Below are positions 13,693-63,312 of a stretch of 64,000 bases of DNA, one piece after another. The stretch comes from a virus: the IMG/VR virus record IMGVR_UViG_3300037423_001547; one strand, given 5' to 3'. Numbering within the stretch: the first letter of the stretch is position 1; each line of letters starts with the position of its first letter. Below the pieces are notes generated by a model, which searched no databases, had not been told where the DNA came from, and was given only the letters and a program-made list of their open reading frames with translations. Made by a program: the position numbers and the translations under genes.

Positions 13693-14145
13693 TTACGCGG
13701 TGGAGCTGGCCCGGAAGAAGTCGTTGATCGTCAGCGAGAAGTTGTTTCCGTCCGGCGTCCAGGTCAGGTCGTGCTTGGTGAGTGGGATGAGGTCGGCGTC
13801 GGTGCCGCCCGTGGTGTCGGGGTCGTAGCAGATGACGAGGGCGCCGATCGGGTTGCCGGTTGGCGACGTCCACGTGACGTCCGCGGCGTCCAAGGCGATG
13901 CGGTCGTTGGTGTCGTCGACGGTGACCGTGACGCTCGCGAGGGTCTTGCGGCCGACGGTGGTCTGTTCGTTCGTGGTCCCGGCAACCAGCGAGGCGAAGT
14001 CGTCCTTGTCGCGCAGGACGGAATCTGCCTCCAGACCGCTGGACTCCAGGGCGATCAGGATGAGGGCGTCGTTCGCGGCGGGCAGTGAGGCGTAGTACGC
14101 CACCTTGCCCAAGGCGATGTTGAAGGTGATGGTGGCCATGCTCAC
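13693..14145 (-). CDS. hypothetical protein (150 aa)
   Basis: Well-balanced, beta-rich composition, located in the post-lysis block. Confidence 0.65.
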   Translation of the reverse strand: MSMATITFNIALGKVAYYASLPAANDALILIALESSGLEADSVLRDKDDFASLVAGTTNEQTTVGRKTLASVTVTVDDTNDRIALDAADVTWTSPTGNPIGALVICYDPDTTGGTDADLIPLTKHDLTWTPDGNNFSLTINDFFRASSTA

Positions 14146-14150
14146 TACTC

Positions 14151-14780
14151 CTATACGTACTGCCTGCGCTGGGGGTCCAGCGCCAAGGCCTGCGGACTCT
14201 TACCGTCGTCGGGATCGCTGGGCTGCGGAGCGCCGTCCTTCCGGCACACCAGCGCATCCGGATCCCACGACGGCACCTGCGGCGAGTAGCCGGTCGGGCA
14301 TGCGGGGCCCGCAGGGCCTCGCTCTCCCTGCGGCCCTTGCTCTCCCCTGGGACCAGCCGGTCCGGGCTCGCCTTGCGGGCCCTGCTGCCCGGCCGGCCCG
14401 ACGGGACCCGTTGGGCCGGTCGAACCGGCGGGTCCCGTCGTACCGTCGGTCCCGTTCTTCCCGTTCTTGCCGGGGGAGCCAGAGGGGCCGGGTTCGCCCT
14501 GTGGTCCGGTCGGTCCTTCAGGACCCGGTGGACCAGTGACGGTCTTACCTGGTTCGCCGCGAGATCCGGGCGGTCCCGCGACGGGCTTCTCACCGAGCTG
14601 CTCCACCTGCCGGGCGAGCGCGTCACGGGCGGCATTGGCCGTGTGCAGTTCATTGGTGAGGCCCTGCACGCTCAGCACGATCCACGCAAGCGCAGCCCCG
14701 AGCATCAGCGCCGCTGTTATAGCCAGCACATCGCCGCGGCGCCACCGCCGCTCTTCCGCCCTGACTTGCACCCGGCTCAC
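14151..14780 (-). CDS. membrane-anchored collagen-like repeat protein
   Basis: GTG 14780 lies 2 nt after the upstream stop. There is a TM segment ([21 protein letters not shown]), then about 100 residues of uninterrupted G-X-Y triplets ([11 protein letters not shown]...GERGPAGP) and a C-terminal globular part. Confidence 0.75.
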
Positions 14781-38241: not shown

Positions 38242-39258
38242 TCATGCGGCGGCCGGGAAGCGGCCGGTCCTGATCGCGGTGCGGGCGCGGGCCTCGACCG
38301 CGGGCAGCAGATCGTCGACGGTGCGCAACAACTCGCGGGCGGCGCGCAGCCGTACCGCACGGGACTCGGACGGGCGGGCGGTGCCGTAAGCGAGGGAACG
38401 GTGTGCCTCCCGCTGCAGTGCCAGCGGGAACGGCACGCCCTCGGTGGTCCACGCGTCGTCCCAGGGGACTGCTCTGCACCTGCAGTGCGCGTGCAAGGGC
38501 GGCCCGTCCACGCCCGGACGGTGCGCACCACGCTGCCGGGGATCCCAGGACAAGCCGCCCGGGAACGGCTCGTCCTTCTTGACGACGCGGCCGGTGTACG
38601 CGCTGCAACGAACGCAGGCATCCGCTTCCGATACCCACACCCTGAGCGGAGCCGCCGCCCGCACCACCGCGTCCAGGCCCTCGTGCACGGCGGTGTTGAT
38701 GACCCACGCGATATGCGCACGCACCGCAGGCAGCGCGGCGCGGGCTGCGCCGAGCCCGGCCAGCATGTGCGACCAGCGCGACACCCGGTCCGGATGCAGC
38801 AAGAACAGTGCACGGTCGCGGCGCTCGGTCACCATCTCCCGGATCCGGCGCGCCTCGTCCCGCAGCGAACGGCTGACGGACGGGACACGCGGTTCCCGGC
38901 GCCGTCGGCCCGACGCGGCTCGAACGAACTCGGTGCCCTGCCGCACCCCCATCGCGAGCGCCGGGCCGAGCCCGTCGGCGAGTGCGGCGGGGGCCCGGTC
39001 GGCGATGCCGGCGAGGAGTCGCTGGACGGCTGCCTTCGCGGTGGCAAGGATCCGGCGCAGCGCGTCAGCCGAGGCAGCCGCATGGTGGGGTCCGCCGAAC
39101 GCGCGGGTCCACGCATCGAGGATGCGACGGATCAGCTCCTCGAACGCCCGGTCGGCGCCGCGGAGCGCACGGGCGGCGATCCCGTTCTCCAGGTCAACGA
39201 CCTCGCCCGTGTGCTCGTCCTGCACCAGGTTCATGAGGCGGTCGCTGGAGTACGGCAT
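38242..39258 (-). CDS. head morphogenesis protein (MuF / SPP1 gp7 family)
   Basis: 338 aa with CVRCSAYTGRVV...PPLHAHCRCRAVPW, the conserved MuF-like C-terminal motif. ATGA overlap with the portal stop. Confidence 0.8.
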   Translation of the reverse strand: MPYSSDRLMNLVQDEHTGEVVDLENGIAARALRGADRAFEELIRRILDAWTRAFGGPHHAAASADALRRILATAKAAVQRLLAGIADRAPAALADGLGPALAMGVRQGTEFVRAASGRRRREPRVPSVSRSLRDEARRIREMVTERRDRALFLLHPDRVSRWSHMLAGLGAARAALPAVRAHIAWVINTAVHEGLDAVVRAAAPLRVWVSEADACVRCSAYTGRVVKKDEPFPGGLSWDPRQRGAHRPGVDGPPLHAHCRCRAVPWDDAWTTEGVPFPLALQREAHRSLAYGTARPSESRAVRLRAARELLRTVDDLLPAVEARARTAIRTGRFPAAA

Positions 39259-59956: not shown

Positions 59957-60325
59957 TCAAGCGGAGGGTTCGGCGAGGGGGAGCTGGCCGCTGGCTTCGA
60001 TGGCGGCGCGTCGGGTGGCGGCTGCCGTCTGTGCGTGGTGGTCGCGGTCGTAGTGGAGGTGGCAGCCCTGGCACATGGCGCGGAGGTTGTCGTCGTGGCA
60101 GTTCTCGGGGGTGTGGTCGAGGTGGGCGACGGTGAGCACCACCTTCGAGCCGGTGCCGTACGCCTGACCGCCGTTGACGTTGGGGCAGCGGCCGACGTGT
60201 GTGCCGCGTCCGCATTCGCCGTGGCATTCGCAGCGGCCGGCGGCGCGTTCGGTGCGGATGCGGAGGCTGATGGTTTTCCAGTCGGCGGGGTACCGGTGGC
60301 GGTTTTCGGGCCGGATGGGGCTCAT
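59957..60325 (-). CDS. HNH endonuclease
   Basis: CECHGECG...VAHLDHTPENCHDDNLRAMCQGCHLHYD gives an H-N-H arrangement with flanking Cys pairs. Confidence 0.88.
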   Translation of the reverse strand: MSPIRPENRHRYPADWKTISLRIRTERAAGRCECHGECGRGTHVGRCPNVNGGQAYGTGSKVVLTVAHLDHTPENCHDDNLRAMCQGCHLHYDRDHHAQTAAATRRAAIEASGQLPLAEPSA

Positions 60326-60338
60326 GGCTGGTGTCCTG

Positions 60339-62168
60339 TCAGGCGGCGTCGTGGGGTGCGTCGGGGTGGCCGTGGTTGGGCCTGTCGGGGTGGCTGCCGG
60401 TTTCGGGGTCGCAGCCGAGGTGGGTGTCGTAGCCGCGGTCGAGTCGGTAGCCGGTGAGGGGTTCGGTGCAGACGGTGCAGCAGCGTTCTGAGTGCTGCGC
60501 TGTTCCCGGTGTTCCCTCCCCGTTCCCCCTCTTCGAGGGGGGAACGTGGGGAACGGGGGGCGTTCCCGGTGTTTCCCCGAGCGTTCCCGGAAACGTCTGA
60601 CCTGCGGTTTCTTCTGTTCCCGGTGTGTTCCGGGAAACGTTTCCGGGAAACGTGGGTTGGGGAACGTCGGGGAAACGTTGCTGGGAAACGTCGATACCGG
60701 GCTTTTCGGACCGCGCCTTGCGGTGCTTCACAGCCTCCGCGATCTTTTCGTTGCGGGCGGAGATCTGAAGTTCTGCCAGCTTTGCGCGGACCTGCCGGTT
60801 GCCCGCGTCGTCGGGGACTCCTGCACGGTCCAGGGCGGCGATGATGTGCTCGACGGTGCCGGGGACGGCCGCCATGCCGGCGTCCTGGCCGGGCTCGGTG
60901 TCGTAGGTCATTAGGACGTGCCGGGTGCCGCCCAACGCCCAGTTGTCGCCGTCACGCTGGGACTGGCGCAGCAGGGTGAAGGAGTCGGGGCCGATGCCGG
61001 TGCGGGTGTGGGTGCGCTTCAGTACGAGGGTGCCGCCGCCCTGGTAGGTCAGCTCCCATACGTGGTCGACGTCCTGCGTCTTTGCTGAGGAGCCCCGGCC
61101 GCCGCGCTCTTTGTCCTTGCCGAAGTGGTCCAGGCGCACGCTCGCGATCCGGTCCCGCTTCAATGGCAGCAGGGTGTGCCGGTACAGCGACAGCCACGTA
61201 TCGGCGTCGTTCTCGGGTCCGCCGATGAATCGGGACACGGTGTCGATGACGACGAGTTCGGCTCCGGTGGCCTTCACCAGGGCCATGAGGTCGGCGCCGC
61301 CGCCGGCTGTGTCGAGGGGGCGGACGGGTGGGAAGGATGCGTACCTCAGTTCGCCCATGCGGAGCGGGCCTGCGCCGAAGGACAGGAACCGTTCCTGTAC
61401 CTGTTCCTGTCCGTTTTCGGCGTCGAGGTACAGCACCTTCACGGGGTCCTGTGCGGTGTCGCCGAGGAACGGCTGGCCGGTGGCCATCCGCCACATCCAC
61501 TCTTGCGTGAAGAGGGACTTGCCGGCCTTGCCGTCGCCGACGAGGGTGATCTGCTGGCCGGGGCCCATGAGTTTGCCGGGCAGGAGCTGGATGGCGCCGA
61601 AGTCGGTCGCGAAGAACGTGCCCCAGTTCAGGAGAGAGGCGACGAGGTGGGCGGGTCCGCGACCGGTGTTCTCGCGGAGCTGTTCGCCCTGTTGGAACTC
61701 GGCGACTATGGCGGCGAGTTCGTCACCGCTGACGCCGCGGTCGATGGCGGCTTTCAGCGCGGTGGAGTGGGCGTCGTAGCGGCGTTGCCGCGCGGTTTCG
61801 GCGATGCGTTCGGCGAACGCGGCGGCCATCATCGACGGGATGGTCTCGTTGCCGAGCCGGTAGATGAGGTTGCCGCCCTCGACGCGGTGGAGCTGCCCCT
61901 GCTTTTCGATCTCAGCGCGCACGAGGGCCGGGTGGCATTCCTGGCCGGTGGCGTACAGGCCGGCGGCGATGTCCCAGATGAGCTGGTGCGCGGGCCGGTA
62001 CAAGTCGTCGCGGCTGATGAGGAGGGAGCATTCCTCGTAGGCGAGGCGGGAGTGCATGACGACGCCGACGACGTACTGTTCGGCCTCGATGTCGTGGGGA
62101 GGCGGGTTTCGGTTGAGGCCGTCCTGGTCCGCCGTGTCGCGCGGGCTCATGTGGCGGACGTTCTCCAC
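60339..62168 (-). CDS. replicative helicase-like protein (DnaB N-terminal domain plus RecA-like/RepA-type ATPase)
   Basis: GTG 62168 with a GAGGAG RBS. PPHDIEAEQYVVGVVM is a DnaB N-domain signature. Walker A is TLVGDGKAGKS. The Pro/Gly/Thr-rich tail is encoded by the repeat array. The track start at 62411 adds an Arg/Pro-rich stretch with no RBS. Confidence 0.85.
   Translation of the reverse strand: MENVRHMSPRDTADQDGLNRNPPPHDIEAEQYVVGVVMHSRLAYEECSLLISRDDLYRPAHQLIWDIAAGLYATGQECHPALVRAEIEKQGQLHRVEGGNLIYRLGNETIPSMMAAAFAERIAETARQRRYDAHSTALKAAIDRGVSGDELAAIVAEFQQGEQLRENTGRGPAHLVASLLNWGTFFATDFGAIQLLPGKLMGPGQQITLVGDGKAGKSLFTQEWMWRMATGQPFLGDTAQDPVKVLYLDAENGQEQVQERFLSFGAGPLRMGELRYASFPPVRPLDTAGGGADLMALVKATGAELVVIDTVSRFIGGPENDADTWLSLYRHTLLPLKRDRIASVRLDHFGKDKERGGRGSSAKTQDVDHVWELTYQGGGTLVLKRTHTRTGIGPDSFTLLRQSQRDGDNWALGGTRHVLMTYDTEPGQDAGMAAVPGTVEHIIAALDRAGVPDDAGNRQVRAKLAELQISARNEKIAEAVKHRKARSEKPGIDVSQQRFPDVPQPTFPGNVSRNTPGTEETAGQTFPGTLGETPGTPPVPHVPPSKRGNGEGTPGTAQHSERCCTVCTEPLTGYRLDRGYDTHLGCDPETGSHPDRPNHGHPDAPHDAA
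60500..60695. repeat. dense GTTCCC/GGGAAC and GTTTCC/GGAAAC half-site array (iteron-like, candidate origin)
   Basis: About 16 half-sites in about 190 bp. TGTTCCCGGTG occurs at 60501 and 60615, and CGTTCCCGGTG at 60561. A perfect 15-bp palindrome CGTTTCCGGGAAACG lies at 60638-60652. Confidence 0.6.
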
Positions 62169-62179
62169 GGGCGGTCTCC

Positions 62180-62485
62180 TCAGAAGAGCGTTGTCGTCGG
62201 GCACTGGTGCGATATGAGGTGCTGGTGCGGGCAGTCCGGCGGGTGTCGGGTGCCGGTCCAGCGCAGGCGTAGGGGCCGGAAGCGTTGGCGAGGCAGGCAC
62301 CAGACGAGGTCGTGTGGTGTGCTTGCTGCGGCGGCCGGCCCGTAGGGGCGGGGCTCGTCGGCGGGTGGGAGGTCGACGCTGGCTTTGATGGCGGCGACGT
62401 GGCCGACCCACTGGGTGAGGACGGGCGCGGAGCAGGCCGGGCAGCGGCTGGTGCTGCTGCCCTTTCCGCTCGCGCGCCCGCTCAT
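62180..62485 (-). CDS. hypothetical protein with N-terminal CxxC (101 aa)
   Basis: ATG 62485 in an ATGA overlap with the DUF2303 stop. The longer track ORF is a shadow frame. Confidence 0.55.
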   Translation of the reverse strand: MSGRASGKGSSTSRCPACSAPVLTQWVGHVAAIKASVDLPPADEPRPYGPAAAASTPHDLVWCLPRQRFRPLRLRWTGTRHPPDCPHQHLISHQCPTTTLF

Positions 62486-63312
62486 CAGGCGGAGGTCCCG
62501 TTCATGACCGCGGTGTCGATCTGTTCGCTGATGGCCTTGACCACGTCCGCGAACGCGGTCTTGCGGATCTCGTCGGGACGTTCCAGCTTGTAGCCGAGTT
62601 GGAGCCCGTTCTGCCCGATGCGGTGGCGGAGGCGGGCGGTGAGCTTGTAGCCCTCGCTGCCGTCGAACGGGACCAGGCCGATGATGAACGTCTCGGGGAC
62701 GGTGAGCTGTCCCTTCTGTCCGGCCTTGGACTGGACGGTCTCGACGTACTGGAACTGCCGCTGCCCTGAGGAGAGTCGGCTGGCGGACTGGAAGTCGACC
62801 TTGACGGCGGCCTGGAAGGACTGAGCGATCTCCAGCATGTCCGCGGAGTTCGGCTCCAGCAGTTCGGGGAGGTGGTCCTCCAGGAACTCGGCGAACTCCT
62901 CCTGTTTCATCAGCTGGCCGTCCTGCTGGGTCCACTGCTGCCAGGCGGTGGTCGGGCGCAGCGCGAGGTGGAGGCGGTGGTCACCCCAGCGGGCGGCGTC
63001 CGCGGCGTTGGCGTTGAGGACGGCGGTGACGGTGAGGCGCTCGCTGTCGGCGTACACCTCGGAGGCGTCGTCGTGGTGCTTGGTCCAGTAGGCGAGGAAG
63101 GACTCGGCGTCGCGGACGGTGGTGGTGCCGGTCTTCCGGGACGGCTGGTCCTTGTACTCCTCGCCGGTGAGGTCGATCTTCTGGACGCCGGCCGGGGTGC
63201 GGAAGGCGTAGACCTTGCCGATCTCCAGCTGGGCGGGCTCGGCCGCGAGGAGCGCGGTGTCGACGATGACCTGCGCTTCGCCGGGCGTGGCGGTGAGGTT
63301 GCTGTAGCTCAC
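62485..63312 (-). CDS. DUF2303 (YfdQ-like) prophage protein
   Basis: 275 aa, GTG start with an AAGGAAG RBS. The overall sequence resembles the YfdQ/DUF2303 family as I remember it. Confidence 0.65.
   Translation of the reverse strand: MSYSNLTATPGEAQVIVDTALLAAEPAQLEIGKVYAFRTPAGVQKIDLTGEEYKDQPSRKTGTTTVRDAESFLAYWTKHHDDASEVYADSERLTVTAVLNANAADAARWGDHRLHLALRPTTAWQQWTQQDGQLMKQEEFAEFLEDHLPELLEPNSADMLEIAQSFQAAVKVDFQSASRLSSGQRQFQYVETVQSKAGQKGQLTVPETFIIGLVPFDGSEGYKLTARLRHRIGQNGLQLGYKLERPDEIRKTAFADVVKAISEQIDTAVMNGTSA

Follow-up and report, generated by a model that had tools for sequence, protein, structure and literature searches.

The 64,000-nucleotide stretch of viral DNA considered here (IMG/VR virus record IMGVR_UViG_3300037423_001547; the whole stretch is referred to below as the window) belongs to a temperate Streptomyces phage, the early region of which carries a gene for a DnaB-family helicase. 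In the 3' part of this gene, at 60502-60689, is an array of short repeats in both orientations which is probably an iteron-type origin of replication bound by the C-terminal domain of its own helicase. A first-pass annotation, made from the sequence alone, had proposed an iteron-type origin embedded in a replication gene at this site; the comparative test favours that proposal. The data show the anatomy of the array, selection on its DNA, its co-variation with the helicase and the exchange of cassettes; origin activity, binding, melting and self-loading are inferred.

The array comprises 16 GTTYCC sites in 188 nucleotides (nt), eight on each strand. Nine are GTTCCC/GGGAAC (starting at 60502, 60511, 60522, 60540, 60549, 60562, 60583, 60616 and 60660) and seven are GTTTCC/GGAAAC (60571, 60589, 60633, 60639, 60646, 60671 and 60684), so that the approximate half-site counts of nine and seven in the first-pass annotation proved to be exact. 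The other 63.8 kb of the window contain 50 sites (66 in total); compared with this background of 0.157 per 200 nt, 16 sites per 200 nt represent an approximately hundredfold excess (Poisson P(>=16) ~5e-27). Longer forms of the motif are also concentrated here, with 12 of the 30 CGTTYCC and 8 of the 12 ACGTTYCC sites of the window falling within the array. The longer unit that had been reported in three copies is present (GTTCCCGGTG, at 60502, 60562 and 60616), as is the 15-bp palindrome CGTTTCCGGGAAACG (60638-60652), which forms the core of a larger 17-nt dyad, ACGTTTCC-G-GGAAACGT (60637-60653). No second GTTYCC cluster was found in the 64-kb window or in the 21.8-kb contig context. One candidate, at 38394-38567 (three CGTTCCC in 170 nt), consists of Pro-Phe-Pro codon runs within a 338-amino acid (aa) gene of the structural-gene region (38242-39258, minus strand) and was judged to be due to chance. 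The parts of the array are as follows:

60502-60689, both strands: iteron array of 16 GTTYCC sites, consensus A-C-G-T-T-Y-C-C-C, eight in each orientation; encodes linker residues 483-554.
60646-60689, minus strand: Block I, four iterons in the same orientation starting at 60684, 60671, 60660 and 60646, 11-14 nt apart.
60628-60653, no strand assigned: Block II, overlapping dyads including the perfect 17-nt palindrome at 60637-60653; encodes TFPGNVSR.
60595-60610, minus strand: conserved box (AAACCGCAGGTCAGAC in sense, GTCTGACCTGCGGTTT on the plus strand), lying where the GC content of the array is lowest.
60582-60596, no strand assigned: Block III, a dyad immediately after the box, sense ACGTTTCCGGGAACG; encodes TFPGT.
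60518-60558, no strand assigned: Block IV, a hairpin or cruciform with iteron arms CCCCGTTCCCC ... GGGGAACGGGG and loop CTCTTCGAG; encodes PPSKRGNG.

Block IV has a single-strand DNA fold z of -5.3, and an equivalent hairpin is present in every class of relatives and in the non-coding arrays described below. The GC content dips to ~0.62 at the centre of the array, as against 0.71, and is the lowest within +/-2 kb in 41 of 63 loci.

The tail of the helicase that the first-pass annotation had attributed to the array is indeed encoded there, the minus strand reading ...TFPGNVSRNTPGTEETAGQTFPGTLGETPGTPP... within the helicase open reading frame (ORF). The gene and its domains are these:

60339-62150, minus strand: helicase gene, 603 aa, stop codon included; starts MSPRD... 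and is identical to the called metagenomic gene P0001.
61797-62102, minus strand: DnaB N-terminal domain, approximately aa 17-118 (PF00772, E 7.5e-16), helical, predicted local distance difference test score (pLDDT) about 90.
61110-61574, minus strand: RecA-type ATPase core, approximately aa 193-347 (PF13481 AAA_25, E 2.8e-21).
60708-60860, minus strand: three-helix domain, candidate DNA-binding and specificity domain, aa 431-481, with the signature GNRQ at aa 450-453.
60381-60485, minus strand: zinc-ribbon-like Cys/His tail, aa 556-590, CxxC...HxxC, pLDDT 63-78.

At E<=1e-20 the helicase has 454 homologues, nearly all of them in Streptomyces genomes. Streptomyces phage mu1/6 (gp21, 49% identity) is the sole cultured phage with a homologue in the phage collection, and no close homologue was found in the plasmid collection. 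The loci compared were 70 orthologous ones, from genomes and viral contigs, together with 31 more from metagenomes. Each of the 70 contains 5-15 copies of a motif of its own in the 300 nt before the CxxC codons, and the same motifs number 0-6 in the other ~9.4 kb of each locus. The motifs fall into five classes:

Class A (the window): ACGTTTCC or ACGTTCCC, 42 loci.
Class E: GGTTCCCC, 19 loci.
Class B: ACCTCCCC, 5 loci.
Class C: ACCTGCCC, which includes mu1/6.
Class D: ACCTGTCC.

Distant relatives add six repeat types (CTGTCCC, CTGTTCC, CGTGTCC, CTCGCCC, CCGTCC and CCTGTGC), which brings the total to eleven. All classes share one layout, which on the sense strand begins with three to five direct repeats, goes on to a dyad cluster, a reverse repeat, the box, a dyad and two or three reverse repeats, and closes with the iteron-armed hairpin. 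In 63 arrays the number of sites ranges from 6 to 16, and neighbouring sites are mostly spaced 9-13 nt apart, or about one helical turn, whatever the class.

Comparison of about 90 related loci shows that the array is conserved as DNA and not as protein, a conclusion to which codon usage, synonymous sites, dyad symmetry, reading frame and the existence of non-coding copies all contribute. The G+C content of third codon positions is 0.69 in the arrays as opposed to 0.93 in the rest of the gene; Gly is encoded by GGC in 5% of cases (82% elsewhere), Val by GTT in 51% (2%) and Phe by TTT in 28% (1%). Synonymous codons are identical more often than regional codon usage would predict, the excess being 0.30-0.35 in the arrays and 0.02-0.08 elsewhere. 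In the dyad after the box the symmetry is maintained by paired changes, ACGTTTCC-C-GGAAACGT encoding TFPGNV and ACCTCCCC-C-GGGGAGGT, in locus L039, encoding TSPGEV. The corresponding dyads of mu1/6 (ACCTGCCC-C-GGGCAGGT) and L076 (ACCTGTCC-C-GGACAGGT) specify the same peptide, TCPGQV; what sets them apart is a pair of compensating synonymous changes (TGC..GGG vs TGT..GGA). Almost no variation is seen in the box, AAACCSCAGGTCARAC, with CAGGTCA 92-100% conserved in 65 distinct arrays; strict matches to it occur 55 times within arrays and 10 times in 517 kb outside them. It is read in frame 1 in classes A-D, giving (A/P)GQT, and in frame 0 in class E, giving PQV(K/N), and it recurs in the non-coding arrays.

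These data bear directly on the suggestion that the repeats are a by-product of the Pro/Gly/Thr-rich linker, arising through selection on the peptide or through recent slippage without selection. The segment does encode a low-complexity peptide, and the 72 residues concerned (aa 483-554) are predicted to form a disordered linker (pLDDT about 30). However, the peptide is not conserved between repeat types while the layout of the DNA is, and the peptide differs between clades because the repeat sequence differs. The two orientations of the repeat encode different peptides, the box is used in two frames, non-preferred codons are conserved at synonymous sites and in 14 relatives the array is not translated at all. 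A by-product of the linker is thus an explanation already contradicted, and it is scarcely credible. The first-pass annotation had suspected a constraint on the DNA rather than on the function of the protein, and had recommended asking in related phages whether the repeats or the encoded peptide are conserved; the turnover of repeat and peptide, the two-frame box, the non-coding arrays and the conserved yet non-preferred codons agree with the first point, and the relatives have kept the repeats and their layout and not the peptide.

The non-coding copies are found in 14 short-form relatives (33-47% identity) in which the helicase ends right after the three-helix domain. Here the stop codon is followed by 230-330 nt of non-coding DNA which contain the array, complete with direct repeats, box and iteron-armed hairpin, and a locus-specific motif is present in 6-13 copies, compared with 0-5 elsewhere in each locus. 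Taken together with the other lines of evidence at the DNA level, these copies indicate that the array is an autonomous cis element, and that the ORF of the Streptomyces clade has come to read through it into the zinc-ribbon tail. In one short-form locus, L107, a small ORF that directly follows the non-coding array, starting ~230 nt beyond the helicase stop, encodes ...GGCDTC...HDDQC (CxxC...HxxxC). Fusion with a downstream gene of this kind might be how the Streptomyces helicases acquired their tail; the pattern was not seen in the other short-form loci. Two class B proteins, P0068 and P0072, have ~25 extra residues inserted after the three-helix domain and before the array-encoded linker (alignment columns about 514-546); the spacing between the sequence coding for the domain and the array is therefore not fixed.

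The repeat type is closely coupled to the three-helix domain. Where the second helix starts, a signature at aa 450-453 agrees with the repeat type in 63 of 63 sequences: [GS]NR in 39/39 of class A, GSPR in 4/4 of class B, GNP in 17/17 of class E and, for both class C and class D, GR[DE]R. The same rule held for 9/9 sequences of an independent metagenomic set. Class B is found on backbones which are 90% and 66-73% identical to the core of the window protein. The window and two class B loci, L007 and L008, have nucleotide identities of 0.70-0.97 for aa 1-438 but only 0.40-0.62 for aa 439-558; for aa 559-578, which belong to the zinc ribbon, the value is again 0.78-0.87. Conversely, L008 and L033, which are both class B with diverged backbones, have aa 439-478 and 519-538 among their most alike parts. 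To judge from this mosaic, helices 2 and 3 and the array are exchanged as one cassette to which the equally adjacent zinc ribbon does not belong. The alignment positions sharing most mutual information with repeat type were aa 452-454 and 467; because this measure is confounded by phylogeny, it was set aside in favour of the mosaic and signature analyses.

Outside the array the helicase is recognizable as a member of the DnaB family. The Walker A motif of its ATPase core (GDGKAGKS) is invariant in the alignment of homologues. Foldseek analysis of the model returned DnaB and DnaC (Bsu) as the top 40+ matches over ~440 aligned columns (best E 4.5e-16); the template-modelling scores to DnaB were low (0.25-0.40), which is consistent with a different domain orientation in the model. 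Since the core has no match to Pfam DnaB_C and does match AAA_25 (PF13481), it is assigned to a divergent, RepA-like branch of the DnaB family (superfamily 4, SF4). No Pfam match was obtained with the C-terminal 183, 67 or 53 residues. In the AlphaFold2 model the helices of the three-helix domain span residues 433-442, 451-460 and 467-481 (pLDDT 80-88). We have not called this domain a helix-turn-helix or a winged helix because Pfam, PDB profile and Foldseek searches all gave no significant match. In the zinc-ribbon-like tail C558 and C561 are invariant, and the short-form relatives lack the tail.

On the model that we favour, the 8-9-bp iterons, which here are ACGTTYCCC, would be recognised by the three-helix domain (aa 431-481), whose coding sequence lies immediately 5' of the array. 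Many protomers would bind the 16 sites, arranged as direct repeats on one side with the dyads and the iteron-armed hairpin around the lower-GC box, and one or more DnaB-type rings could then assemble on the phage DNA and promote local opening in the lower-GC centre around the box. The helicase would thus load itself, with neither a separate initiator nor a loader, after which the primase and polymerase of the host would take over. The box itself may be recognised by a host factor or by some conserved part of the protein. Since the ORF is read across the putative origin, the iterons would dictate the 72-residue disordered tether joining the DNA-binding domain to the zinc-ribbon tail, and because the binding helices and their sites lie side by side they would be inherited and exchanged as a single specificity cassette. 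Whether this holds in general is, in our estimation, an evenly balanced question: a family of DnaB-type (SF4) helicases of actinobacterial prophages may be their own origin-recognition proteins and self-loading, with the origin directly after the DNA-binding domain, inside the ORF in the Streptomyces clade (where the iterons encode the tether to the zinc-ribbon tail), and with at least 11 specificities that are swapped as cassettes of helices and iterons.

Several observations weigh against this reading. No discrete AT-rich unwinding element was found at the array, where there is only the modest GC dip in a genome of 70% GC, and there is no DnaA box (TTGTCCACA, one mismatch allowed) near the array in the window. 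Three distant relatives of the helicase (L096, L109 and L110), which end after a similar C-terminal domain, are followed by no obvious array in the first 450 nt beyond the stop codon. For the three-helix domain no PDB profile match was significant, and Foldseek of its model gave E>4; its DNA-binding role is suggested by co-variation and by position. Domain and array are only about 50 nt apart, and their co-inheritance could stem in part from this physical linkage. Lastly, the loci were compared over about +/-4 kb, and a more distant trans-acting binder of the array may exist.

The array might be an origin, or another cis element, which is bound by a different protein, either a phage initiator encoded elsewhere or a host factor, with the match to the domain resulting only from linkage. 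The absence of a recognisable DNA-binding fold in the three-helix domain would suit this explanation, as would its position beside the array, from which recombination would rarely separate it, and the limited span of the comparison. Against this, recombination has parted the array from the equally adjacent zinc ribbon and never from the three-helix domain (63/63 and 9/9); no type-specific flanking gene family occurs within about 2.5 kb of the locus; a host factor cannot account for eleven repeat types in one host genus; and the short-form helicases end with this domain and the array comes directly after it, as in the Rep protein of the pathogenicity islands found in Staphylococcus aureus (SaPIs). 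We therefore hold a separate binder to be unlikely.

Selection on the DNA and coupling to the three-helix domain would fit equally well if the helicase C-terminal domain bound the array for some purpose other than the start of replication, such as autoregulation, a roadblock to downstream read-through, titration or copy control of the handcuffing type, and the lack of a clear AT-rich unwinding element points the same way. The array, however, is not at a promoter but at the 3' end of the helicase gene or immediately beyond it; a scan of 60200-61000 for sigma-70-like promoters and terminators found nothing. Its layout of opposed iterons, lower-GC centre and hairpin is that of characterised origins, and the early region showed no further candidate for an origin or an initiator. 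A purely regulatory or titrating array is accordingly a rather improbable account of the locus. Two further analyses of the array region gave no signal: Rfam yielded no credible RNA family (E about 1 only), and the GC skew showed no switch, which is uninformative because all of the genes are co-oriented.

The complete genome of mu1/6 allows a further function to be weighed, namely that the array serves packaging (pac/cos), partition or site-specific recombination, since sites of these kinds can be repeat arrays within genes. In mu1/6, 10 of the 31 CCTGCCC sites fall within 14135-14319; this array lies 14 kb from the end of the record and 9 kb from the gene for the integrase, and is 4.6 kb upstream of that for the terminase. 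Moreover, the array is always tied to the helicase gene rather than to terminase, ParB or integrase genes, and the elements are integrating prophages with no close homologue on plasmids. Such a function is very improbable.

The sequence TGTGGACA occurs in the short-form arrays of L099, L105 and L111, 66-78 nt after the helicase stop codon, and differs at one of nine positions from what we take to be the Streptomyces DnaA box (8/9 match), which is a weak hint of a host contribution at those loci. It is found three times in 26.6 kb of arrays and once in 688 kb elsewhere; the three loci are related, and the occurrences may represent a single event. A second short sequence, GATCTTG, recurs in the arrays of L099, L101, L102, L105 and L111, in four of the five extended as TGATCTTG, and in L099, L105 and L111 it shortly precedes the conserved box.

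The early region of the phage specifies a repressor/cro pair, RecT, a DnaQ-like exonuclease, RuvC, WhiB, YfdP/DUF2303, the helicase, an HNH endonuclease and a methylase. The helicase is the sole replication-fork protein recognised there, and profile searches, the only kind made, identified no primase, polymerase, helicase loader or separate initiator among its neighbours. Its true start is 62150 and not the GTG which opens a 690-aa ORF; the mechanical ORF adds 87 codons upstream of the true start (62151-62411), and in the contig gene calls a 101-aa gene (PHROG 16156, unknown function) fills the space up to the DUF2303 gene. The HNH gene (59957-60325, minus strand) is situated just downstream of the helicase gene and shows 80-90% nucleotide identity to HNH genes of Mycobacterium phages (Ksquared, KilKor, SkinnyPete and others). 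When 60000-62500 was compared with phages by megablast this gene alone gave matches, in Mycobacterium phages; it looks like a recently mobile gene common to phages of different host genera.

To our knowledge, phage origins are essentially unmapped in Streptomyces, and in the literature, coverage of which was incomplete, we found no description of this element and no mapped origin for mu1/6. If the interpretation is correct, the array would provide a widespread group of Streptomyces prophages with its first candidate origin, and the helicase would be a DnaB-family member with an origin-recognition module of its own; the helicase-initiator fusions that we know to be established are confined to SF3/AAA+ helicases (SF3, superfamily 3; SaPI Rep, P4 alpha and viral E1/LTag). 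The eleven repeat types and their matching protein signatures constitute a natural specificity series which could be used to derive a recognition code and to construct orthogonal Streptomyces replicons, and the cassettes themselves would be natural orthogonal replicon and incompatibility modules. The locus also provides an unusually clean case of a cis element dictating protein sequence, the same DNA being read in two frames, or left untranslated, across relatives. With mu1/6 as a cultured representative all of this is directly testable.

Among known systems, P4 alpha and N15 RepA are primase-helicase-initiator fusions with their own origin-binding domains, and the N15 origin lies within the 3' part of repA. 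They differ from the present helicase in being built from primase and SF3-type helicase modules, in being enterobacterial and in having unrelated repeats. In the same host genus, the Streptomyces plasmid pWTY27 has a proven origin of ~300 bp containing 7-8-bp repeats on both strands and long discontinuous inverted repeats; binding of its Rep has been shown, and replication is bidirectional (PMC3583192). Its repeats (GTGGGAAC/TTCCCAC) resemble the GGGGAAC/GTTCCCC of this array. In the theta-type plasmids of Streptomyces (pWTY27, pFP1 and pFP11), however, the Rep is unrelated and the origin is non-coding and beside rep.

The first-pass annotation had drawn a parallel with the lambda origin within gene O, and for the arrangement this is apt. 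In the lambdoid phages the binding domain of O and the iterons vary together. The lambda iterons lie inside gene O, adjoining the part for the iteron-binding domain, and encode a stretch which is dispensable for DNA binding, additional iterons simply adding residues (PMC7466680). Likewise, the array at 60502-60689 is within the ORF of its presumed binder, although this is true of the Streptomyces clade only and not of the short-form relatives. The parallel does not extend to the protein, which is a helicase of the DnaB type and not a homologue of O: no Pfam or PHROG match to phage O was found in it, and O is not a helicase but recruits the DnaB of its host through P. The sites also differ, lambda having a single block of four to six ~19-bp iterons with a marked AT-rich tract after it, and the present array 16 of 8-9 bp in both orientations, with a box and a hairpin.

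It is because the protein is a DnaB-type helicase and not an O homologue that the SaPIs offer a closer functional analogue than lambda. SaPI Rep combines helicase and initiator in one polypeptide, the C-terminal DNA-binding domain of which recognises iterons of 5-6 nt, and the origin consists of 6-12 iterons directly 3' of rep, opposed around a less stable centre, with a specificity that varies by element (PMC9371898). The short-form relatives share this order of gene and then array; more generally, short opposed iterons stand immediately 3' of the sequence for the C-terminal domain, and no separate initiator or loader is recognised. The differences are that SaPI Rep is an SF3/AAA+ 3'-5' helicase with a winged helix, where this protein is of the DnaB/RecA type with a three-helix domain, and that the SaPI origin is non-coding with a clear AT-rich centre, where the ORF of the window reads through a mildly GC-poor array. 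Since SaPI Rep is SF3/AAA+ and not DnaB-type, the helicase is not a member of that family; by analogy, SaPI Rep and its origin are nevertheless the nearest system in both function and layout, and nearer than lambda.

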